DNA of 64,000 nt from Candidatus Freyarchaeum deiterrae (GCA_037305845.1 CP147778.1:160001-224000), one strand, 5' to 3'. Numbered from the stretch's first letter, positions 52,113 through 64,000 are shown. The notes: a model not told the origin generated them from the sequence alone. Numbers and translations are program-made.

Positions 52113-53606
52113 ATGTCGGAGAAATATGATGCGATAGTGATTGGAGCGGGTCTTGGAGGACTTTCTTCTGCCGCCACACTTGCCAAGAATGGACAAAAAG
52201 TACTGCTTCTTGAAAAGCATTATAGGCCCGGTGGATATGCAGGTAGTTTCGTGAGAGGGAGATTCGAGTTTGAAATCGCACTGCATGAACTGTCGGGTCT
52301 AGATCTCGACGGCAAGCGTGGTTTTTTCTATAAGGCTTTGGAAAACCTTGGTGTAACAAAGAGGGTAGATTTCATCAAACTTGACACATTATACCGCTCC
52401 GTCTTCCCTGACCTAGAAGTCACGATTCCCGTAGGAAGAGAAAATGCGGAGGGAGTGTTGCTCGACACTTTTCCCCATGAGTCGGAGGGAATAAAGCGTT
52501 TCCTAGACAGAATGAGTAATACCAACGATGCTCTGAGTATGATGCAGCGCGGTGAACTGTCTAAAAAGGAAATTCAGGAGAACTTCTTTGCATACAAGGA
52601 TAAAACTCTAGCGGAGGTGCTTAACGCAGATGTTAAAGACCCCAAAGTCCGCGCTGTGCTCGCCCAGCTCACGGGCTACTTCGGTCTACCACCCTCAAAA
52701 CTTTCGTACGTAATATACGCAACCGGCTTTTACACCTACCTCCGCTACGGTGGAGCCCAAATCCGAGGTACCTCCCAAACACTATCCAACGCTTTTGTGG
52801 ACATCATCCAAGAATTGGATAGCGAGGTCAGATTTAACTGCGGAGTCAAAAAAATCCTCACGGAGGGAGGTAGAGTAACCGGAGTGATAACAGACAAGGA
52901 GGAGAGCATAAAATCGCACCATATTATCTCAAACGTTAACCCTATAACAACCTGCGCAGAACTAATCGGAGTGGACAAGTGCCCTCCCTCAATATTCCAA
53001 ACCATGCAAAAAAAAGAAATCGGGCTCGGAACAACTTGCGTCTACATGGGATTAGATATCTCGCATGAGGAACTGGGAATAGACGAGTTCGAAACATTCA
53101 ATAACTCCAGCTATGATTTAGACGCCTTTTTAGAAAAGGGAAGTAAGAGCATTGAACCAGAGGATGTAGGACTTACTATCTATAATGTCGCCTACCGAGA
53201 TGCCTCGCCTCCAGGAACCACAATAGCTGTGAATACCTCTCTAAGCTACGCCGAACCCTGGTATAAAATACCACCCTCAGAATATGTTAACGCCAAGAAC
53301 AGGGTGGCGGACTTGATGCTAACCAAAGCGGAAAAACTAGCACCCGGAATAAGAGAACACATAGAAGTCGTCGAGGTATCCACACCATTAACCAACATAA
53401 GATACACAGGCAATCCCAGCGGTTCTATCATGGGAACAACTTACGCTCCAAATGACAGTATAATGTACCGGCTGCCCCAGGAAGGACCCTTTAAGGGGCT
53501 TTACTTTACAGGAGCCTGGACTCAGCTTGGTGGCGGCTTCCAGACTTGTATGATGTCGGGTATGATGGCGGCTCAGAAGGTAATAGCTGAGATGACCAAA
53601 AAATAA
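52113..53606 (+). CDS. FAD-dependent oxidoreductase, phytoene desaturase/retinol saturase family
   Basis: VIGAGLGGLS, LLEKHYRPGG, STPLTNIRYT, GLYFTGAW..GGG. Confidence 0.88.
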   Translation: MSEKYDAIVIGAGLGGLSSAATLAKNGQKVLLLEKHYRPGGYAGSFVRGRFEFEIALHELSGLDLDGKRGFFYKALENLGVTKRVDFIKLDTLYRSVFPDLEVTIPVGRENAEGVLLDTFPHESEGIKRFLDRMSNTNDALSMMQRGELSKKEIQENFFAYKDKTLAEVLNADVKDPKVRAVLAQLTGYFGLPPSKLSYVIYATGFYTYLRYGGAQIRGTSQTLSNAFVDIIQELDSEVRFNCGVKKILTEGGRVTGVITDKEESIKSHHIISNVNPITTCAELIGVDKCPPSIFQTMQKKEIGLGTTCVYMGLDISHEELGIDEFETFNNSSYDLDAFLEKGSKSIEPEDVGLTIYNVAYRDASPPGTTIAVNTSLSYAEPWYKIPPSEYVNAKNRVADLMLTKAEKLAPGIREHIEVVEVSTPLTNIRYTGNPSGSIMGTTYAPNDSIMYRLPQEGPFKGLYFTGAWTQLGGGFQTCMMSGMMAAQKVIAEMTKK

Positions 53607-53684
53607 GAGAAAAAACTACTGAAATTAAACCTAAAGACTATACTACGCCAAGGAATTTGGCTTCATTAAAAATTATAATTTTTA

Positions 53685-53770
53685 ATTGCGCGATTCTAGT
53701 TGAATCTTATAAGATATAAAAGGATTTGAAAAATTAGTAATTTAGTATAATGGTAAAACTTATTAAATTT
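53685..53770 (+). promoter_or_regulatory. Conserved promoter, copy 0
   Basis: ATTGCGCGAT at 53685; CTTATTAAAT TATA element starts at 53759 (offset 74). Confidence 0.65.
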
Positions 53771-53789
53771 ATGTGTAAGTAGATTGATA

Positions 53790-54175
53790 ATCGAGTCCAA
53801 AATGTTTCCCAACTTAACCCGACAAATCTCAGACCCACCGGGAAACATTGACGGATGAGAAAACGAATCCAAAAATAAAAATGACAATGGTTGTCAACTC
53901 CCACGAAGAGTATATGCACCCACGCACCCGAAAATGCTTACCTGGGAAGGAAAAGGCCCGAGGGGACCAGGGGGATTCCCAGGCGAGCAACTCCATTTTC
54001 ATTAAAACCTCTAACTAGTCACAGATGTAACTTCTAAACTTTCCAGAATTTGGTGTTCTATACTCCATTATGGTTTGAAATGTGGGACATTGCACTGCTG
54101 GTAGGTGGCTTCACAACTTCCCGTGGGAACCGGCGAAGGTAATGTAATAACCCGAAAGATAATGAAAAATGGGAA
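53790..54175 (+). ncRNA. Putative structured ncRNA, divergent relative of the BHB RNAs
   Basis: No credible ORF; stems 53801-53810/53840-53849 (perfect 10 bp), 53935-53948/53976-53989 and 53993-54004/54160-54172; same promoter as copies 1-3. Ends approximate. Confidence 0.45.
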
Positions 54176-54318
54176 AGAAGGATAAATTATAAAACTAGTG
54201 CTGTAAAAACTGCAACTCGTAAATTTAAGAAAATAGAGTGGGCCTTGAAAAAATCCATATTAAATTCAAGAACGATGAATGGATCGACTAAGGACTAATT
54301 ACTCTTTTTTTCCAGATT

Positions 54319-54897
54319 TTACCACATTTTTCCTTTGTAATGCTGCATTATGGGGCAACCGAGGCACTTTTTTTCTTTGTATCTCTTGCATTCGGTGCAA
54401 AGGTATTCGGATCCGCAGAGCGGTCTATCCATAATGTTTATTTTCATTTGGTAGGGAAGGTTTAGGTCCTTTGCGGCTGAAATTATAATGTTGAATTCGA
54501 CGTCTTTGACCTCTGGTAGTCGTCCTAGGTGGCATTCCACTACCGACTGGAGGGTTGATATATCCTCGCCTATGAGAAGCATGAAGACGCTATTTTTTCC
54601 TGATATTGTGAATCCGTTGAAGAAGTGTGGACAATTTTTGAAAATTTCCAATATTTTTTCGCTGTCTGTAGTGGAAACCTCGACTTTGGCAATATAGAGT
54701 CCCATTTTTAGGGGATTTACTCCGCAAATCCTCTGGAATACGCCCATCTCCTTCAGTTTTTTTAGCCTCATAGCTACTGAGGGTTGGGACAGCTTAATGA
54801 TCTCTGCTATTTGTTCCTGAGGAATATCTGGGTCTTCGCTCAGAAGCGATAATATCTCACGGTCTTTCTCATCCAGTTTAACTGCGGGCTCTGCCAT
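54319..54897 (-). CDS. Lrp/AsnC-family regulator with Cys-rich C-terminal extension
   Basis: LDEKDREILSLL..LSQPSVAMRLKKL HTH, RAM domain, C-x5-CxxC-x7-CxGCP tail. Confidence 0.92.
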   Translation of the reverse strand: MAEPAVKLDEKDREILSLLSEDPDIPQEQIAEIIKLSQPSVAMRLKKLKEMGVFQRICGVNPLKMGLYIAKVEVSTTDSEKILEIFKNCPHFFNGFTISGKNSVFMLLIGEDISTLQSVVECHLGRLPEVKDVEFNIIISAAKDLNLPYQMKINIMDRPLCGSEYLCTECKRYKEKKCLGCPIMQHYKGKMW

Positions 54898-54941
54898 ATC
54901 TATTTACCAATTATGGAAATTCTTTCCAGAGTTATAAGAAT

Positions 54942-55027
54942 ATTGCGCAATTTCCGTTAAATCAAATAATTTATAATGAATTTGGCTAAAATAATAATAA
55001 AATATATTAGTTATTTTTATTAAATAG
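54942..55027 (+). promoter_or_regulatory. Conserved promoter, copy 1 (divergent from lrp)
   Basis: Perfect palindrome ATTGCGCAAT 54942-54951; TTTATTAAATAG at 55016 (offset 74). Confidence 0.75.
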
Positions 55028-55044
55028 TTGTACGCTAATTAAAA

Positions 55045-55400
55045 TACGAGAAGCATAGACAAAAACAAGTTTCAACTAACCACACAAAAACCAGGAGAAT
55101 CCACCTGGAAGGTTTAGAAAAACCGTCAAGAAAACTATTCCCCAAGAAAGTGCTATGGCTCCCGCTAAGCTTACTTGAGGGGTGGGCCCCGAATTGCTGG
55201 GGAGGAGGCCCCCCCTAAGTAAGCACAAACCTCGGATGGATGCGCTCAAACGAGAATGCAGTCGATGACTCACGAGTTTAGATGCGTGAATGAAAGAGCT
55301 TCGCAGGCTAGCAATAGTATTATGTTTATTGCTGACCACCCACCCTCTCTCCCTCGCACAGTCTGTGGAGCCCCATTAAACACGCACCCAAAACAGAGTG
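55045..55400 (+). ncRNA. BHB-containing structured ncRNA, copy 1 (predicted excised segment 55295-55379, 85 nt)
   Basis: GCGTG-AATG-AAA-14 bp helix...helix-CATT-AAA-CACGC (55284-55385); invariant 26-mer 55333-55358; upstream hairpin 55169-55224. Ends approximate. Confidence 0.75.
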
Positions 55401-55561
55401 ATTAAAAACGGACATGACAAGTTGTGCAGAAGTTTAACAAATGTTACTGAGAATAGAAACAAAGACCTGAACACAGAAAGAGACGAATCAACGCATGACC
55501 CTTTATGAAAAACATCATTAAAACTCAAGAAGTATAACTAAAAAGTTAAGGAGGCAAATGG

Positions 55562-55720
55562 ATGACAAATACTCTTACTATAAGAGAAAAAGCCACACTG
55601 GTAGTGGACTTCGATACCTGGAGAGACTTGAACCAGCTCAAAACCGAACTCGGTCTAAAAACCATTGACGATACCATAAAACATTTAATAAAAGAAAACG
55701 GTAACGGCGGCAAGAAGTAG
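55562..55720 (+). CDS. 52-aa ribbon-helix-helix-like protein (not in ORF track)
   Basis: MTNTLTIREKATLVVDFDTWRDLNQLKTELGLKTIDDTIKHLIKENGNGGKK; GGAGG SD at 55550. Confidence 0.7.
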   Translation: MTNTLTIREKATLVVDFDTWRDLNQLKTELGLKTIDDTIKHLIKENGNGGKK

Positions 55721-55841
55721 AAGCTTTCAAATGCAACGTACATCTATTCAATCTTTCTAGTAAAATGATGTATGCATAGTCAGTTCCTCTGTTTTGCACT
55801 ATCTTTTGATTGTAGAGGTGTAAAGGATTAGGTGAGAATGA

Positions 55842-55994
55842 ATGCCAGAAGTTTATTGTGAGATTAAGAAACGGAAGGTTGATGGGGGATTCTGCGCATA
55901 CATGTGTGAACTCCCAGAAACCGAAAAGAAGATCGCTTACAATCCCTTCAGAGGGATACAAACAGACTGCAGCTTCAGCAAGGAATCCTCATAA
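55842..55994 (+). CDS. 50-aa four-Cys small protein (not in ORF track)
   Basis: MPEVYCEIKKRKVDGGFCAYMCELPETEKKIAYNPFRGIQTDCSFSKESS; GGTGA SD at 55831. Confidence 0.55.
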   Translation: MPEVYCEIKKRKVDGGFCAYMCELPETEKKIAYNPFRGIQTDCSFSKESS

Positions 55995-56115
55995 ACAGAA
56001 GAAGTCAGTATAAATGCCAGATTAGGGCATAGTTCATTTTAGCGAGTCGTCTGCGGTTGAGGAGCATCCCGGCGCACTTTGCAGCCTTTTCTTAGCTATG
56101 CCGATCAATCTGCTA

Positions 56116-56481
56116 CTATTGTAAGTGTTCTTTGATTATACTTAGCAGGTTTTCAATTTTTATAGGTTTGAGTATGTAACCGTCTGCACCCTTGTTTACG
56201 GCTTCGATGGCGCTCCGCATTGTAGGATAGCCGGTAACCATAATTTTGACCATTTTGGGGCTGGCATCATTAATAGCAGCCAGAAGTTTTGTTCCTTCCA
56301 TGTCCGGAAGTCGAACGTCTATTAATGCTAGGTCGTAAGAATTGGTCTTGGTTTTTTCGATTGCTTCATTTCCATTTTCTGCCGTGTCGACGGTGTATCC
56401 TTCTTCTTCTAGTATTTTTGTTAGGATGCTTCTTATGCTTTCATCGTCATCGACAACAAGAATACTGGCAGGCCCACCCAT
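56116..56481 (-). CDS. Single-domain response regulator (receiver)
   Basis: ILVVDDD, LIDVRLPDMEG phospho-Asp, VTG, YILKP. Confidence 0.93.
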   Translation of the reverse strand: MGGPASILVVDDDESIRSILTKILEEEGYTVDTAENGNEAIEKTKTNSYDLALIDVRLPDMEGTKLLAAINDASPKMVKIMVTGYPTMRSAIEAVNKGADGYILKPIKIENLLSIIKEHLQ

Positions 56482-57004
56482 ACTACTCCCACCATTAATT
56501 TTTGTATTTGATTAGAAGATTTCCAAAGTCCCGCATTTTCCAATAGCGCCTTCCGCGTAGATCCATTCATAGTACATTTTTCGCAGTATCGAATAATAAT
56601 ATTTTATAAACCTTGCAAGAATCTACGCTGCACCGTTTTCTACTTTTTCTGAAAAGTCAAATTCTCCTATACGTATATAATCAATGGTTTTTCTTCAGAA
56701 ACTTTTATGGCTCCCAGATTTAATATTATTATTAATCAGTCTAATCATCTTTTTAAGGCGGAAAGCTTCATTTAACTGCCACACTTCTCCTATAAAAAAC
56801 TATTCAAAAAGTATAATAAAAAAGATATTTTATTCACGCTTTATAGATTTAAATGAGCGCTAATAGTTGAGAAATAAATTAGTAGACGATTATAATTGCA
56901 AAAATACAGGCTTCAAATGGAATTTAATTCGAATCTTGAACAGGTCCACAAACCATATCCAAAAGTTGAGGCTAAATTCCGGGGACAATACAGAGGAGCT
57001 AAAT

Positions 57005-59158
57005 ATGGGAAAATTGGTAGAGAAAACGGAACCCGTTAAAATGCGAAAATCAGGGATCGAAGTTCTGGGCGACATCCCTTGGGGAACACACCTCTGTCAA
57101 TTCTACGAAACCAAGGAAGACCTGCTCGATATTCTAGTGCCCTACTTCGCTGAGGGCCTAAGAGACAATGAATATTGTATATGGGTTACTGCCCCACCCT
57201 TGGACACCGAGGAAGCAAGGGCATCGCTTCAGGAAGCGGTTACCGAATTGGAAAATTATGTGGAGAAGGGGCAGATTGAGATTCTTCCATACACGGATTG
57301 GTATCTTCTCAATGGAGAGTTTGACGAGAACAGGGTTCTTAATGGATGGGTGGAGAAAGAGAAAAGTGCCCTCGAGAGGGGTTTTGAGGGAATACGTCTT
57401 ACGGGGAACTTTATTTGGAGTGAAAAGAAATTTTGGAAAAAGTTCGTAGCATATGACGCAAAAATTAGTGAAATAATTGGAAGGCACCGAATGATTGCTA
57501 TCTGCGCTTACTCTCTTGAGAAATGCACCGGAAACGATATTGCTGATGTTATAAGAAACCATGGGAACGCACTGATTAGAAAGGGAAAATCATGGTTCTT
57601 AGTTGAAGACAGTTCGAAACATAGATTGGAAGATAATAAAGTCGTTGGCAGCCTGACAAAGTTAATGAGAAGCGAAGAGAAATATCGGCAACTAATAGAA
57701 AATTTGAATGAAGGGATTTGGCTCATCGATAAGGAATCCAGGACTACCTTCTGCAATGAGCGTATTTCGGAGATTTTGGGATACACGGTGGACGAGATGA
57801 TTGGTAGGAATTTATTTTCGTTCATGGATGAACACGGTGTGGAGATTGCCAAAAAACTGTTAGAACGCCGCAGAGAGGGAGTAAGAGAGGATCATGATTT
57901 CGAATTTATTCGTAAAGATGGGGCAAGGATTTACACGCGTTTAGGTACGTCACCAATCATAGACGAAAATGGAAATTATGCTGGTGCGCTTGCTGCGGTC
58001 ATAGACATCACAGAACGCAGGCGTATGGAAGAAGAACTGGAGAATTCGGAAAAGCGTTATAAGGAACTGTTCAACAACACTGGTGACGCCATCTTCATCC
58101 ATGACTTGGAAGGTAAATTTCTAGAGGTTAACCGTGTAGCCTGTGAACGCCTCGGCTACAGCCGGGAAGAATTCCTACGGATGAGCCCAATGGACATAGA
58201 CACTCCAGAATATGCAGCCATAGTACCTGAACGGATGGAGGAGCTACGCCAGAAAGGTCAAATCATATTCGAAACGGCTCACTTGAGACGCGACGGCTGC
58301 GACTGCATCCGCATACCCACCGAACTGAGCAGTTGCCTCATTGAGTATGATGGAAAGCCAGCTATCCTCAGCATCGCCAGAGACATCACCGAGCGTAAGA
58401 GAATGGAGGAGGAGCTCAGACGTTACTCCGAGCACCTTGAGGAATTGGTCGAAGAGAGAACAAGAAAGCTGAGAGAAGCCGAGCGGATGGCCGCTATTGG
58501 TGAGACTGCGGCCATGGTGGGCCATGACCTCCGCAACCCGCTGCAGAGCATTTTCGGCTTACTTTATTTAGCTAATAAAAACTTGAATTCTCAAGCCACT
58601 TCAAATGGGAAACAGAAAAATGACTTGGCTGAGTTGTTGCAAACAATCGAGGGACAGGTGGACTACATGAACAAAATTGTTTCTGATCTAGAGGATTACG
58701 CGAAGCCAGTGAATCCCCAACTGGTTGCGACGAGCGTACACCAGCTAATCGATGACACATTCTCAGCGAGAACAATTCCTGAAAATGTTAGAGTCTACAT
58801 GGGAATTGAGGAGGACTTACAACTGGCGATTGACCCCACTATGATGCGGCGTGTATTAGCCAACTTGATTGAAAACGCAGTTCAAGCCATGCCAAACGGA
58901 GGCCAGCTGAAGATAAAAGCTTCCAAAAAGGGGGACTCTGTACTTATAGGTGTAGAGGACACAGGTGTGGGCATACCGGGAGAGAATCTGTCCAAACTTT
59001 TCCAGCCGCTATTCACCACCAAGGCTAAGGGGCAGGGGCTCGGATTAGCCGTCTGCAATAGGCTGGTGGAAGCCCATGGTGGCAGCATTACGGTGGAGAG
59101 TGAGGTGGGTAAAGGCTCAACCTTCACAGTCGAAATACCGCTTAAAAAGATGAATTAA
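57005..59158 (+). CDS. MEDS-PAS-PAS-HisKA-HATPase soluble histidine kinase
   Basis: GTHLCQFYET (MEDS), two PAS/PAC, GHDLRNPL, ENAVQAM, DTGVGI, FTTK..GQGLGL; start ATG 57005 after GAGGAG. Confidence 0.93.
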   Translation: MGKLVEKTEPVKMRKSGIEVLGDIPWGTHLCQFYETKEDLLDILVPYFAEGLRDNEYCIWVTAPPLDTEEARASLQEAVTELENYVEKGQIEILPYTDWYLLNGEFDENRVLNGWVEKEKSALERGFEGIRLTGNFIWSEKKFWKKFVAYDAKISEIIGRHRMIAICAYSLEKCTGNDIADVIRNHGNALIRKGKSWFLVEDSSKHRLEDNKVVGSLTKLMRSEEKYRQLIENLNEGIWLIDKESRTTFCNERISEILGYTVDEMIGRNLFSFMDEHGVEIAKKLLERRREGVREDHDFEFIRKDGARIYTRLGTSPIIDENGNYAGALAAVIDITERRRMEEELENSEKRYKELFNNTGDAIFIHDLEGKFLEVNRVACERLGYSREEFLRMSPMDIDTPEYAAIVPERMEELRQKGQIIFETAHLRRDGCDCIRIPTELSSCLIEYDGKPAILSIARDITERKRMEEELRRYSEHLEELVEERTRKLREAERMAAIGETAAMVGHDLRNPLQSIFGLLYLANKNLNSQATSNGKQKNDLAELLQTIEGQVDYMNKIVSDLEDYAKPVNPQLVATSVHQLIDDTFSARTIPENVRVYMGIEEDLQLAIDPTMMRRVLANLIENAVQAMPNGGQLKIKASKKGDSVLIGVEDTGVGIPGENLSKLFQPLFTTKAKGQGLGLAVCNRLVEAHGGSITVESEVGKGSTFTVEIPLKKMN

Positions 59159-59304
59159 GCTGAACAAGAAAAGTTATAGATTTTAAAAAATCTCTCTAAA
59201 ACTGGAGCTAAAAAAATAACTTAAATCTCAAAAACAAGCATCAACAAATTTTTAAATTAGAGTGCCTCGAGGAGTAGCAGCCTAAGCTAATAGTCCGGTA
59301 ATTT

Positions 59305-59366
59305 GCTATTGGAAATTTATGGCTCTTCGTATAGAAGAGTTGATGTTTCATGCACTTTTGTGCAGT
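59305..59366 (-). pseudogene. Decayed remnant of the lrp 5' end
   Basis: Reads HETSTLLYEEP* versus REILSLLSEDPD in the intact gene, at the equivalent position relative to the promoter. Confidence 0.5.
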
Positions 59367-59418
59367 ACAAGAATCTGTTTTGCTATTTTTCATGAGGTTT
59401 CTGTTGAATTATAAGAAT

Positions 59419-59504
59419 ATTGTGTAATTTCAATTAAATTAAATAATTTATAACAAAATTTTCAATAATAATAATAAATTATCATAGTTAGTTTTATTAA
59501 ATAG
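59419..59504 (+). promoter_or_regulatory. Conserved promoter, copy 2
   Basis: ATTGTGTAAT at 59419; TTTATTAAATAG at 59493 (offset 74). Confidence 0.7.
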
Positions 59505-59521
59505 TTTTGCTCTAATTAAAA

Positions 59522-59873
59522 TACAAGGAGCTTTAAAAAAATCTCAGAACCGTCCACTTGGGAGGCATACAAGGACCAGCAGGGAATTCCCCCGAGAAAA
59601 CGCTGGCTCCAGCTCTGCTTGCGGGAAGGGGGATTTAAAACTGCTTGGGGCGGAGGACTCCTAAATGTTGGGAGGAGGCCCCCCACCTTAAGCCCGCGTC
59701 CTCCAGAATGGGCGACTTCAGTGATCCAGTAATACAGAACTAAAAGTTTAAAGCGTGAATGAAAGAGTTTCACAGACCCCAAATAATATTAAGATAATGG
59801 ATAGATGACCACCCACCCTCTCTCCCTCGCACGGTCTGTGAAGCTCCATTAAACACGCACCCAAAACAGAGTG
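59522..59873 (+). ncRNA. BHB-containing structured ncRNA, copy 2 (predicted excised segment 59764-59852, 89 nt)
   Basis: BHB 59753-59858 with inner helix GAGTTTCACAGACC/GGTCTGTGAAGCTC; invariant 26-mer 59806-59831; upstream hairpin 59643-59693. Ends approximate. Confidence 0.75.
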
Positions 59874-60035
59874 CCTAAAAAGACTAAAATGACGAATTCC
59901 ATAGCGCATCAGAGAGAGCACAAGCGGTATGAATAAAAACAACTAACCAAAAAACGAATTGAAGTATGACTTTTACGAAAAAAATCATTAAAGCTTTTGA
60001 AAAGTTGATTAAAAAAAAATTAGTGATGAACATAA

Positions 60036-60188
60036 ATGCTCAAAAGGAATAATAGAATAGAAAAAACTACACTGGTAGTGGACCTTAATGATTTAATCTT
60101 GAAAGAACACAGTGCTCTGAAGCAGATCCTGAAAGAAATCACAAAGGATTACTATTCAATACAGCGAAAGAACACAATCTCTCAGTAA
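60036..60188 (+). CDS. 50-aa ORF partly homologous to the RHH-like protein (possibly degenerate)
   Basis: MLKRNNRIEKTTLVVDLNDLILKEHSALKQ...; shares EK(A/T)TLVVD and the upstream ATGAC..TTTA.GAAAAA.ATCATTAAA motif with 55562..55720. Confidence 0.4.
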   Translation: MLKRNNRIEKTTLVVDLNDLILKEHSALKQILKEITKDYYSIQRKNTISQ

Positions 60189-60271
60189 ACGTTGAAAGCA
60201 CGGCTGTAAAAAAGGAGTAATTCTTACAAAACATTCAATTAGACTAAAAAGTCTGGAAGCAAGAAGACGCG

Positions 60272-60352
60272 CCTGTAAAGATTATTGTCGACCACTATGA
60301 AAGTGTAAGGAAAGATTTAACAAACATGAGCGAAAGGAGAATACGTTTTTGA
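60272..60352 (+). pseudogene. Possible receiver-domain remnant
   Basis: PVKIIVDHYESVRKDLTNM resembles PASILVVDDDESIRSILTKI; stops early and has no start. Confidence 0.35.
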
Positions 60353-60815
60353 AGAAAAAACGATCGAGCCCGAGCCCCAAACGCTTTAATAGTTTTAGCG
60401 TCTCTGCCCTCTGATTTTAAACTATTTCATTTCATTAAGTGTTTTATAGCTTGGTCAATGGTTTTAGACTGGGTTCGGTTTTTAGCTTGCTCAAAGCTCT
60501 CCAAGTATAAATTCTGAATACGACCAATCGGAATTTATTACTTCGAAGGATGCCTATAATTTTTATAATATTTCCAATTAATTTTTATCAAATACGCAAC
60601 CCTTTTAAATGAAGACTTCTTGCAGTTTTATTAAATAAGAACTATTTAGAATATTATGATAAAATAGTTAGTGTTAATTAAGCGGTAAGAGTTAGAAATA
60701 GGGTATATAAAAAATTTTTAAAAAACCTCACTGGTATGAGAAGCTAACATTAAACCAGTTGGCATCATATTTAGAGTTAAGAGAAGTCTGAGGGAAGAAA
60801 GGAAGAGGTTAAGGT

Positions 60816-62594
60816 ATGGTAAAATTGGTGGAGGAGATAGAAAATTCTGCCTTGCGAAAATCTGGAATTGAAGTTCTGGGCGACATCCCTTGGGGAACAC
60901 ACCTCTGTCAATTCTACGAAACTAAAGAAGATATGAAAGATATTCTGGTGCCCTACTTCGCTGAGGGCTTAAGAAACAATGAGATGTGTATGTGGGTGAC
61001 CTCAATACCTTTGGGAGTCGAAGAAGCAACAGCGGCGCTTCGGAAAGCGGTTCCTAACTTGGAATATTACGTGGAGAAGGGGCAGATTGAGATTCTTCCG
61101 TACACGGAATGGTACCTTCTCGGCGGAGAGTTTGATATGGACAGAGTTCTGAATGGATGGATTGAGAAGGAAAAAAGCGCTATTGAGCGCGGGTTTGATG
61201 GGTTGCGTCTTACTGGAAACACTTTCTGGCTTCAGCGGAGCCTCTGGCAAAGCTTCGTGGACTATGAAGCAAAAATAAACGAGGTGATCGGGGAGCACCG
61301 AATGGTCGCCATTTGTACTTACTCGCTTAAAAAATGCACCACCAGCGATGTTATCGACGTCATGAGAAACCATGAGAGCACATTGATTAGAAAGGGAAAA
61401 TCCTGGTTCCTAGCTGAAGATGTCACAAAGCGTAAAATGGCGGAGAATAGGGCTACAGAGAGCCGGACACAGTTGAAGAGAAGCGAAGAGAAATACCGCT
61501 TACTAATAGAAAATTTGAATGAAGGGGTTTGGGTTTACGATAATAAAATCTTGACCTCTTTTGTCAATGAGCGCATGGCTGAGATGTTGGGATACACCGT
61601 GGATGAAATGATTGGTAAACATATATTTTCATTCATGAATGAAAAGGGAGTGGAGATTGCCAAAAAAAAGTTAGAAAGCCGGAAACGGGGAATCGCCGAA
61701 GTTCATGAATTCGAATTTGTCCGAAAAAATGGGACTAGAATTTACACGCAAATAGGTGAATCGCCTATCATAGGCGAAGATGGAAATTTTGCTGGAGCAA
61801 TTGCTGCCGTCACAGATATCTCAGAACACAGGCGAATGGAGGACGAGCTTAGAAATTATTCCGAGCGCCTAGAGGAGTTGGTTGAAGAGAGGACAAGAAA
61901 GCTGAGAGAAGCCGAGCGGATGGCTACAGTAGGTGAGCTGGCTGCTACAGTGGGCCATGATCTCCGCAACCCGCTGCAGAGCATTTTCGGCTTACTTTAT
62001 TTAGCTAATAAAAATTTGAATCCTCAAGCCACTTCAAATGGGAAACAGAAAAATGACTTGGGCGAGTTGTTGCAAACAATAGAGGGACAGGTTGACTACA
62101 TGAGAAAAATTGTTTCTGACCTTGAGGATTACGCGAAGCCAGTGAAGCCTCAACTGGTTGAGACCAGCTTACACCAGCTAATCGATGAAACATTCTCAGC
62201 GATAACAATTCCAGAGAAGGTTCAGGTTTCTATCGGAATTCAAGAGGACTTTCCACAGCTGATGGTTGACCAAGCAATGATGCGACGTGTATTGGACAAC
62301 CTAGTTACAAACGCAGTTCAAGCCATGCCAAACGGAGGTCGACTGACGATAAAAGCATCCGAAACAGATGACAATGCGCTCATAATCGTAGAGGACACGG
62401 GTGTAGGCATACCTGAAGAGAATCTCCCAAAGATTTTCCAGCCACTGTTTACCACAAAGCCTAAAGGTCAAGGGTTCGGATTGCCGGCCTGCAAGAGGCT
62501 GGTGGAAGCCCACGGTGGCAGCATCACGGTGGAGAGTGAGGTGGGTAAAGGCTCAACCTTCACAGTCAAAATACCACTCAGAAATATGAAGTAG
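60816..62594 (+). CDS. MEDS-PAS-HisKA-HATPase soluble histidine kinase
   Basis: Close paralog of 57005..59158 with one PAS domain; GHDLRNPL and N/G1/F/G2 boxes. Confidence 0.94.
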   Translation: MVKLVEEIENSALRKSGIEVLGDIPWGTHLCQFYETKEDMKDILVPYFAEGLRNNEMCMWVTSIPLGVEEATAALRKAVPNLEYYVEKGQIEILPYTEWYLLGGEFDMDRVLNGWIEKEKSAIERGFDGLRLTGNTFWLQRSLWQSFVDYEAKINEVIGEHRMVAICTYSLKKCTTSDVIDVMRNHESTLIRKGKSWFLAEDVTKRKMAENRATESRTQLKRSEEKYRLLIENLNEGVWVYDNKILTSFVNERMAEMLGYTVDEMIGKHIFSFMNEKGVEIAKKKLESRKRGIAEVHEFEFVRKNGTRIYTQIGESPIIGEDGNFAGAIAAVTDISEHRRMEDELRNYSERLEELVEERTRKLREAERMATVGELAATVGHDLRNPLQSIFGLLYLANKNLNPQATSNGKQKNDLGELLQTIEGQVDYMRKIVSDLEDYAKPVKPQLVETSLHQLIDETFSAITIPEKVQVSIGIQEDFPQLMVDQAMMRRVLDNLVTNAVQAMPNGGRLTIKASETDDNALIIVEDTGVGIPEENLPKIFQPLFTTKPKGQGFGLPACKRLVEAHGGSITVESEVGKGSTFTVKIPLRNMK

Positions 62595-62831
62595 AGTGAA
62601 CAAGGAAAGTATCCAGATTATGGATAATGAAATTCAAGTCTAAAAAGCACCAACAAATATTAAAAAATAAAAGTATTCAAACTGAGGATTTGATTTTTGG
62701 GTTCCGCGTTAATTAATAATATCAACTTTAAATTTTCAGCCAGTAAGGTCATAATCCTGCCCCTCTTGCCTAAGGAGAAGCTTGATCCTTTTTTTTTATT
62801 AGTTATGGGTTTCCTCTGAATTACAAAGAAT

Positions 62832-62917
62832 ATTGCGCAATTCTAGTTAAATCGAATAATTTATAGTGAAATTTATTACACAAATTATGAATTATAATAG
62901 GCAAATTTATTAAATAG
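62832..62917 (+). promoter_or_regulatory. Conserved promoter, copy 3
   Basis: ATTGCGCAAT 62832-62841; TTTATTAAATAG at 62906 (offset 74). Confidence 0.75.
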
Positions 62918-62934
62918 TTACTAGAGATATATAC

Positions 62935-63260
62935 AAAGAAGAAAACACTTAGCCCAACTACAAATACAACAGAGTTACACTAATCCTGGCGGTATGGAAT
63001 GGCGGAGGAAATTACAGGGCTCCCAAAAGTGCTTCAACGGAGGATCCCTCAAATGCTGGGAGGAGGAGGGGTCCTCCCGGAAAGCACACGCTTCAACTGA
63101 AGACTGCACTGGAATTGGTAATTCGGAGTTTAACGGGTTGGTTTAACGCGTGAATGAAAGAGTTTCACAGACCCCAAATAAAATTATGATAATGATGACC
63201 ACCCACCCTCTCTCCCTCGCAGGTCTGTGGAGCTCCATTAAACACGCACCCAGAACAGAT
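62935..63260 (+). ncRNA. BHB-containing structured ncRNA, copy 3 (predicted excised segment 63159-63241, 83 nt)
   Basis: BHB 63148-63247; invariant 26-mer 63196-63221; upstream hairpin 63029-63087. Ends approximate. Confidence 0.75.
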
Positions 63261-63295
63261 TTACTGAGAGAAACGCTAATACGGAGTGATGTAAA

Positions 63296-63529
63296 ATGGT
63301 TGAAGTTGTTAAGACATTTGGTGAGTTAAAATATCTGGCTGAGAATTGGATAAAGGTGTATGATTTAAAGTGTCCTGTGTGTGGCTCACCGGTCTTCGTT
63401 AGACCATTCAATGTGTTCTCGGTAGCGGCAGAGAGTGGTCTTATTGAGATTGAAATGGAGCAGATATGCCAGAATTCAGAATGTGGTTATAGTGCAATCA
63501 GATTTTATGATATTCAAATTCACGAATAA
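63296..63529 (+). CDS. Small zinc-ribbon protein
   Basis: CPVCG ... CQNSECGY; GGAGTGA SD; starts about 50 nt after BHB copy 3. Confidence 0.75.
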   Translation: MVEVVKTFGELKYLAENWIKVYDLKCPVCGSPVFVRPFNVFSVAAESGLIEIEMEQICQNSECGYSAIRFYDIQIHE

Positions 63530-63643
63530 TTCTTGAATTCCTAAACCGATATTTATATTGAATGTGTTACCACAGCAGAAATGTTTTTTGATTGGTTTAG
63601 TGAATAAGCTTAATGTCTATATGTTTATGGTTTACTATTATTA

Positions 63644-64000
63644 CTAGATGAGACTGAAAACGTTAGAATTTGAAAGGCTGGGATCGAATTGTTAAAGGAT
63701 GTTTGTTTGGGGACGCACCTCTGTCAATTCTATGAAACTAAAGAAGATCTTATCGATATTTTAGTTCCCTATTTTGCTGATGGTTTAAGGAAGAATGAGT
63801 TTTGTATGTGGGTGACCTCGCCACCCTTGGTAGTTGAGGAAGCGTGGGCTGCACTTCGGAAAGCGGTCCCTGACTTGGAGAAGTACAGGGAGAAGGGACA
63901 GATTGAGATTCTTCCGTACACGGAATGGTACCTTCTCGGCAGGGAGTTTGATATGAATAGAGTTCTGAATGGATGGGTGGAGAAGGAAAAAAGCGCTATT
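63644..64000 (+). pseudogene. Third MEDS-domain sensor, partial at window edge, with in-frame TGA near the N-terminus
   Basis: LDETENVRI*KAGIELLKDVCLGTHLCQFYETKEDL...; TGA 63671 aligns to CGA (Arg) of both paralogs; a TTG restart at 63689 is possible. Confidence 0.65.

Follow-up and report, generated by a model that had tools for sequence, protein, structure and literature searches.

To our knowledge, the known substrates of the archaeal splicing endonuclease are nearly all tRNAs and rRNAs, together with one mRNA intron and one intron in a 5'-untranslated region (UTR). An intron excised from a bulge-helix-bulge (BHB) element can itself hold a functional RNA, as in Euryarchaeota, where a C/D-box small RNA (sRNA) is carried in the pre-tRNA-Trp intron. 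In Haloferax volcanii, the 5'-UTR of HVO_1309 contains a BHB intron of 46 nt that is cut by EndA and circularised (PMC7714728), and in the Freyarchaeia lineage introns are present in 92–95% of tRNA genes (PMC11291895). Here we describe a predicted BHB-containing RNA that lies in three copies beside genes for MEDS-PAS histidine kinases in Candidatus Freyarchaeum deiterrae, an Asgard archaeon of the Jordarchaeia/Freyarchaeia lineage. The window, meaning the whole 64,000-nucleotide stretch of DNA that was analysed (GCA_037305845.1 CP147778.1:160001-224000), covers positions 160001–224000 of the closed 3,576,204-bp genome (40.7% G+C). Coordinates are counted from the first letter of the window unless given as genome positions.

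The right end of the window contains three collinear units, each consisting of a promoter cassette, the structured RNA, a small open reading frame (ORF) and a MEDS-PAS-HisKA-HATPase_c kinase gene. The threefold repetition had been proposed in the original prediction, and it is confirmed by direct-repeat families, by alignment and by three matches to a covariance model, R1 (55279–55396, 59748–59869 and 63143–63258). The direct repeats have start-to-start spacings of ~4473 and 3390 nt for the RNAs and 3811 and 2816 nt for the kinases. In the 13.5 kb fetched past the window end, the genes after kinase 3 encode HSP20 and an AMP-binding enzyme; a fourth unit is thus absent, and the array ends with kinase 3. 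The units have the marks of tandem segmental duplication: collinear paralogous blocks, stubs at the junctions and divergence above zero. With synonymous divergence (dS) between the kinases of 0.65 (1 versus 2), 0.87 (2 versus 3) and 1.11 (1 versus 3), the triplication is real and old.

The RNA is ~300 nt long and contains two covarying hairpins, the second of which is a canonical BHB (hBHBh') motif. This motif comprises an outer helix (GCGUG/CACGC), a 4-bp central helix (AAUG/CAUU), an inner helix of 11–14 bp and two AAA bulges on opposite strands. The central helix and both bulges are exact in five sequences, namely units 1–3, the copy in G002 (one of five other species of the genus, G001–G005) and a copy on a 342-kb metagenome contig, L037 (Ga0315314_1000009). 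The BHB geometry is alike in G001 and G003–G005, but one of the four central-helix pairs is mismatched. Folding with ViennaRNA gave two symmetric 2x2 internal loops in place of the 3-nt bulges, the helices being common to both readings. The loop holds a C/U-rich stretch of 26 nt, UGACCACCCACCCUCUCUCCCUCGCA, which does not differ between units 1 and 2 and lacks one base in unit 3. As had been claimed, the BHB element and this 26-mer are intact in all three units.

Covariation was assessed across nine distinct sequences. Overall, 89.9% of helix cells are paired, against 29–50% when the partner strand was slid, and three helix pairs show double changes. The 5-bp outer helix is paired in 97.8% of cells, with one pair appearing as CG, UA or GC; the inner helix is paired in 87% of cells, and one central-helix pair appears as AU, GC or GU. 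RNAalifold, applied to a plain MAFFT alignment beginning at the TATA box, recovered the BHB helices unaided, together with the domain-1 hairpin of 10 bp, in which five pairs show double changes. An invariant motif, GGGAGGAGG, lies in the loop and 3' strand of this domain-1 hairpin. The host genome encodes candidate processing enzymes, with two PF01974 (tRNA_int_endo, EndA-family) genes, at genome positions 1733162 and 1921033, and one PF01139 (RtcB) gene.

Conservation of the RNA between units is a mosaic. Identity is 0.81–1.0 in the BHB strands and 0.92–1.0 in the 26-mer, and only 0.46–0.75 in the left half of the loop. The four-fold degenerate sites of the kinases, used as a neutral yardstick, are 0.53–0.65 identical; the left loop half is at that level, and the helices and the 26-mer exceed it. 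Because these differences fall within 120 nt, they point to selection and not to plain gene conversion. The earlier suggestion that purifying selection acts on the RNA is therefore supported, by the mosaic identity, by helix covariation and by retention of the RNA in all six species of the genus.

Other roles for the conserved sequence were considered and set aside. A C/D-box sRNA is not indicated, the boxes being unconserved (AUGAUGA is confined to unit 3 and CUGA to unit 1). A coding role for the RNA core does not fit, since overlapping ORFs vary from unit to unit in strand and frame and 1-nt indels occur in unit 3 and G002; no conserved small ORF was found behind GGGAGGAGG on reading the three units. 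Pairing in cis of GGGAGGAGG with the C/U-rich loop is possible in the host genome and was not adopted, because the four distant species lack the partner sequence. For pairing in trans, no antisense match to the 26-mer with up to 4 mismatches was found. A short purine-rich repeat array (GGAGGGAGAGAGGGA-like) at genome positions 1064518–1064671 is partly complementary to the 26-mer, its number of matches being within the shuffled-core range.

Searches with R1 detected one copy of the RNA in each of the five other species, so that all six species of the genus carry it. None of the 145 other genomes of the phylum gave a match, and the sister family gave none either. When named genomes were scanned with a pattern, the RNA was detected only in Candidatus Jordarchaeia, Freyarchaeota and Jordarchaeum madagascariense. 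The L037 copy is by alignment an orthologue of RNA 3. The RNA family appears to be undescribed and restricted to one genus.

The gene order around the RNA in G001, G003, G004, G005 and two metagenome contigs is amine oxidase, lrp (minus strand), promoter, RNA, ribbon-helix-helix (RHH) ORF, receiver (minus strand), PIG-L deacetylase and HSP20; the G001 contig spans the TATA box to the inside of PIG-L and shows the RNA-to-PIG-L part only. The divergent lrp-promoter-RNA layout is found wherever the contig allows, that is, in G002, G003, G004, G005 and the two metagenome contigs. No MEDS kinase lies beside the RNA in G001, G003, G004, G005 or these two contigs. In G001 the MEDS kinase is on another contig, behind an ORF that reads as TBP-like, and in the G003 and G005 assemblies a kinase 2 query gave no match in the MEDS region, the best matches covering only the PAS-to-kinase part at 40% identity. 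The G002 contig breaks inside the RHH ORF. A MEDS kinase of 875 aa in G002 has an upstream spacer in common with kinase 1 and therefore probably sits in the same place; relative to kinase 1 it has ~170 additional aa in the PAS region. On L037 the order is kinase, PIG-L stub, promoter, RNA, kinase (441 aa, no PAS) and PIG-L. Of the two associations originally proposed for the RNA, the one with lrp thus holds in the relatives and the one with MEDS/PAS kinases does not; it is lrp, the RHH ORF and the receiver that consistently accompany the RNA. Judged from these gene orders, the MEDS kinase is a lineage-specific addition that would then have been amplified together with the RNA.

Other genes of the neighbourhood also vary. 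In every relative examined, a PIG-L deacetylase gene separates the cassette from HSP20 (L015 2921-3237), whereas a search of the host genome at E below 1e-4 found no PIG-L remnant. In G002 (L031 1642-6335) and G003 (L018 2225-7187), the amine oxidase gene that precedes lrp is present as a tandem duplicate, with a broken third copy between the two in G003. The features of the three units are collected in Table 1.

Table 1. Features of the three-unit array, in window coordinates; RNA starts are approximate
Feature	Coordinates	Strand	Details
lrp	54319..54897	-	192 aa, Cys-rich C-terminal tail; only intact copy in the island
Promoter cassette, unit 1	54942..55025	+	Palindrome ATTGCGCAAT starts at 54942, TATA box at 55017; 75 nt start to start
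RNA 1	55045..55396	+	Start placed from TATA box; fold z-score -3.3; R1 138.5 bits
RNA 1, domain-1 hairpin	55169-55224	+	Carries GGGAGGAGG
RNA 1, BHB element	55284-55385	+	Predicted intron 85 nt; 26-mer at 55333-55358
Small ORF, unit 1 (probable RHH)	55562..55720	+	52 aa; GGAGG Shine-Dalgarno sequence upstream
Stand-alone receiver (CheY-like)	56116..56481	-	121 aa; Pfam Response_reg 108.9 bits
Kinase 1	57041..59158	+	MEDS, two PAS, HisKA, HATPase_c; frame open from 56867, likely start ATG 57041
lrp 5' stub, unit 2	59301..59358	-	Codons ~11-29, with a stop; collinear with the promoter
Promoter cassette, unit 2	59419..59502	+	Palindrome degraded to ATTGTGTAAT; TATA box starts at 59494; spacing 75 nt
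RNA 2	59520..59869	+	Fold z-score -5.6; R1 141.8 bits
RNA 2, BHB element	59753-59858	+	Predicted intron 89 nt; 26-mer at 59806-59831
Chimeric ORF, unit 2	60036..60188	+	50 aa; first ~17 codons RHH-homologous (repeat family D13; tblastn E 0.16); Shine-Dalgarno sequence lost
Receiver stub, unit 2	60282..60344	+	Codons 8-29, inverted relative to unit 1; score 20 vs 11.7+-1.5 (1/300 shuffles); tblastn E 0.2
Inverted 3' two-thirds of RHH ORF, unit 2	60425..60508	-	Frameshift and stop; score 49 vs 12.9+-1.4; tblastn E 3.5e-4 and 6.7e-4 in two frames
Kinase 2	60816..62594	+	592 aa; MEDS, one PAS, HisKA, HATPase_c
Promoter cassette, unit 3	62832..62915	+	Palindrome intact; TATA box starts at 62907; spacing 75 nt
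RNA 3	62935..63258	+	Fold z-score -4.8; R1 138.2 bits
RNA 3, BHB element	63148-63247	+	Predicted intron 83 nt; 26-mer, here lacking one base, at 63196-63220
Orphan ORF, unit 3	63296..63529	+	77 aa, Cys-rich; 37 nt after BHB; in place of RHH ORF and receiver
Kinase 3	63689..64000	+	576 aa, continuing past the window end to genome 225419; MEDS, one PAS, HisKA, HATPase_c

All three kinases keep the domain order MEDS, PAS, HisKA, HATPase_c and are under purifying selection, with omega values of 0.18–0.24 (0.18–0.20 for the frame of kinase 3). The third gene had been described as carrying a nonsense codon. The stop exists, ATT-TGA at 63668–63673 (TGA at 63671–63673) standing where kinase 1 has ATG-CGA, and it breaks the ancestral start region; only the first ~six codons are lost, and the frame from TTG 63689 keeps all domains. 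The claim that the proteins of the array decay was right for the redundant copies of lrp, RHH and receiver and wrong for the kinases. No further MEDS domain scored above cut-off elsewhere in the host genome, and in the kinase tree only the grouping of kinases 1 and 2 as sisters was resolved (94/94). The number of PAS domains differs, with two in kinase 1, one in each of kinases 2 and 3 and none in the kinase downstream of the RNA on L037; PAS modules have therefore been gained and lost within the array. Separately, a MEDS kinase gene in G004 (G004:C206:1301-2269, L021) contains one in-frame TAG, which could be a break or a recoded codon, pyrrolysine use having been reported in Jordarchaeia (PMC9723677).

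The lrp product matches HTH models in its N-terminal part (Pfam HTH_24 and HTH_AsnC-type; PF13404 at 48 bits and PF13412 at 52 bits, both above cut-off). For a possible C-terminal ligand-binding (RAM) domain, the match to PF01037 (AsnC_trans_reg) is weak, at 17.9 bits against a cut-off of 25, and the NCBIfam LrpA and AsnC models align over residues 3–142, far below cut-off. Orthologues with 71–75% identity lie beside the RNA in G002–G005. As first stated, lrp is intact only in unit 1. Remnants had been suggested in both other units, of which the unit 2 stub stands, with a DNA local score of 19 against 9.0+-1.3 (0/500 shuffles). The unit 3 candidate at 62732–62773 is at chance level, both as DNA (9 against 9.0+-1.3) and as protein (23 against 21.4+-3.2; 88/300 shuffles), and most of the sequence on its left, 62596–62749, matches the 3' flank of the L037 kinase.

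The small ORF of unit 1 probably encodes an RHH protein. It has orthologues of 50–54% identity in four species and a match to the Pfam MatP_C RHH model at E 0.003, below cut-off; its AF2 monomer is predicted as an extended N-terminus followed by two helices (pLDDT 74), and no PDB sequence match was found. The receiver has orthologues of 66–70% identity at the same position in G001, G003, G004 and G005. Between the two in unit 1 is a Cys-rich ORF of 50 aa (55842–55994), which gave no family match and has no copy in units 2 or 3. In unit 2 the trace of a receiver reported earlier was recovered, and the RHH ORF is altered there as had been noted, not by plain divergence: ~17 codons are collinear and the rest is inverted. 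The inverted orientation of both the RHH and the receiver fragments is explained by one inversion, from inside the RHH ORF to the start of the receiver, followed by deletion. The 77-aa ORF of unit 3 is unrelated to the RHH ORF; it has no Pfam or NCBIfam family and no match in G001–G005 or elsewhere in the host genome.

The promoter cassette consists of a 10-bp palindrome and a TATA box, and the distance between their starts is exactly 75 nt in all three units, so that the constancy of promoter spacing claimed earlier is upheld; the same spacing occurs in G005. The palindrome cassette is probably the operator of an Lrp-type regulator. Seven palindrome-75 nt-TATA cassettes occur genome-wide, and the cassette is therefore a shared regulatory module and not private to the RNA. 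Within the window, a fourth copy (53685–54160) is situated past the 3' end of lrp, on the side of the amine oxidase gene and short of it, with palindrome ATTGCGCGAT at 53685 and a TATA box at 53760, 75 nt apart. It is followed by a hairpin at ~53935–53990 that resembles domain 1 of the RNA, and it has no BHB element. Three cassettes lie outside the window, at genome positions 611203 (minus strand), 614348 (minus strand) and 952121 (plus strand); the ORFs behind them appear Roadblock/LC7-like by sequence reading alone, with no profile search. The 611-kb cassette carries an lrp-like N-terminal stub, the 952-kb cassette has its first ~70 transcribed bases in common with RNA 3, and an lrp paralogue with 29% identity is located at genome positions 616007–616573.

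We consider it probable that the locus is an old tandem triplication of a genus-specific regulatory cassette, and that the RNA is a regulatory product of the lrp-RHH-receiver cassette and not specifically the output of the MEDS kinases. The ancestor would have been a single-copy cassette, kept in all six species, with lrp on the minus strand, a divergent promoter, the ~300-nt RNA, the RHH ORF and the receiver on the minus strand. In the host lineage, a MEDS-PAS histidine kinase would have been placed behind the receiver, and the block from the 5' end of lrp through promoter, RNA, RHH ORF and receiver to the kinase would then have been copied. Spare copies of lrp, RHH and receiver would have been broken by truncation, by inversion plus deletion and by replacement, and purifying selection would have held the RNA helices, the 26-nt C/U-rich loop and the three kinases. 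In the proposed pathway, the RNA would be transcribed from the Lrp-controlled promoter, the splicing endonuclease would cut at both bulges, and RtcB would join the exons and circularise the intron of 83–89 nt, which would display the C/U-rich stretch; the spliced remainder would be ~230 nt. A more specific proposal is that this is a dedicated Lrp-controlled gene whose BHB intron becomes a circular regulatory RNA with a C/U-rich, anti-Shine-Dalgarno-like strand, selected in three copies alongside the sensor kinases. We put this forward tentatively and judge it less likely than not.

Several observations weigh against a regulatory RNA processed in this way. Complementary stretches of at least 13 nt occur at ~13 distinct places outside the RNA's own loci, which is within the shuffled-core range, and none of them emerges as a target in trans. 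In G001 and G003–G005, the central-helix mismatch is accompanied by reduction of the 26-mer to CCACCCACC, so cleavage and the role of the loop may not be genus-wide. RNA 2 and RNA 3 are 91% identical, exceeding kinases 2 and 3, and it is kinases 1 and 2 that are sisters; some exchange between unit copies is possible. The start and end of the RNA are placed from the TATA box and T-runs only, and units 1–3 have no clear terminator between the RNA and the next ORF, so that a leader role is possible. The main rival takes up this last point: the RNA would serve as an extended 5' leader for whichever ORF follows (RHH, the 77-aa ORF or, on L037, the kinase), and the BHB element would be a 5'-UTR intron whose removal tunes expression of that ORF. 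A same-strand ORF starts 37–180 nt after the BHB element in 9/9 copies, no T-run separates it from the RNA in units 1–3, and HVO_1309 of Haloferax volcanii offers a precedent (PMC7714728). However, in G002 the BHB element is followed at ~35 nt by a T6 run, and a TATA-like box precedes the RHH ORF, and L037 has a GC hairpin and then T5 before the kinase start. Moreover, the downstream ORF changes between copies as the RNA stays constant, and conservation is highest in a loop of the predicted intron, a part that would be removed from a leader. A leader role is, in our assessment, somewhat doubtful. That the hairpin is left uncut and serves as a structural element or binds a protein, for example the RHH or another RNA-binding protein, its BHB likeness being incidental, would suit the 2x2 internal loops favoured by ViennaRNA and the central-helix mismatch in four species. 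We judge this unlikely in view of the exact 3-nt bulges and 4-bp central helix in five sequences, the compensatory changes in the outer and central helices, and a host lineage unusually rich in BHB substrates (PMC11291895).

The original prediction had cast the RNA as an output or control layer of the MEDS/PAS kinases. Three RNA-kinase pairs do exist in the host genome, a fourth on L037 has the RNA end 50 nt before a MEDS kinase, and the spacer common to the G002 kinase and kinase 1 points the same way. These linkages are not independent, because they stem from one duplication history, RNA 3 and the L037 RNA being orthologous; four of the five other species have no adjacent MEDS kinase, and two have no MEDS-region match in the assembly with the kinase 2 query. 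We therefore regard a kinase-specific role as distinctly improbable. The identity of the RNA cores could also have arisen incidentally, through gene conversion or because units were copied recently, and not reflect selection for a function, as the close match of RNAs 2 and 3, above the expectation from the kinases, and the disagreement between the similarity orders of RNAs and kinases might suggest. But the left loop half, between conserved segments, has diverged to the neutral level, the same segments are kept in G002 and L037, and the helices are kept in four more species, which leaves conversion as a very improbable explanation. Scarcely credible is a derivation from degenerate rRNA or tRNA, either as 'empty' pre-rRNA stems or as broken tRNAs: the succession of promoter, leader and BHB stem is like that of pre-rRNA and the ligated exons would give a 5-bp stem with a 7-nt loop, yet ARAGORN found 0 tRNAs, Rfam gave no match (whole window at the gathering score; 53600–55600 even at E 5), and similarity to the host 16S and 23S flanks is at the shuffle level.

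If the triplicated-cassette reading is correct, the conserved and selected BHB RNA at this locus would be a non-tRNA substrate with its own regulated promoter, present in three copies, and would show that the splicing machinery has taken on a regulatory role in the prokaryotes most closely related to eukaryotes. Should the circular-RNA proposal also hold, it would be the first stand-alone BHB-dependent circular-RNA gene family outside tRNA, rRNA and C/D-box RNAs. The locus also offers a natural experiment on retention and loss after segmental duplication.

Among described systems, HVO_1309 is the closest precedent: in both cases a canonical BHB element belongs to neither tRNA nor rRNA and precedes an ORF in an untranslated part of the transcript. 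The element described here is about twice as long (83–89 versus 46 nt), its loop is the best-conserved part and its processing is predicted; it also has a second conserved hairpin upstream, a dedicated Lrp-type promoter cassette and three copies. Compared with the BHB substrates in archaeal tRNA and rRNA, including those of Freyarchaeia and Atabeyarchaeia (PMC11291895; bioRxiv 10.64898/2026.10.13.758758), the geometry is alike, and the lineage and the predicted enzymes, EndA and RtcB, are the same, but here exons and intron contain no tRNA or rRNA and the conserved content is a C/U-rich single strand. With the sRNA of the pre-tRNA-Trp intron the RNA has in common the idea of an excised, often circular, intron as a working RNA; here, however, the C and D boxes are not conserved and the host transcript is not a tRNA. 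The array follows the general course of tandem duplication and gene loss in its collinear copies, junction stubs and decayed dispensable duplicates, and is distinguished by what was retained, a non-coding RNA and a sensor kinase; L037 carries a comparable copy with other boundaries, marked by a PIG-L stub in place of the lrp stub. Finally, the kinases resemble the MEDS histidine kinases of methanogens (PF14417; PMC5847659) in having MEDS, PAS, HisKA and HATPase_c, no room for membrane segments and a stand-alone receiver nearby, and differ from them in belonging to an Asgard host, in forming a three-gene array that varies in PAS number and in being the only MEDS genes of their genome.

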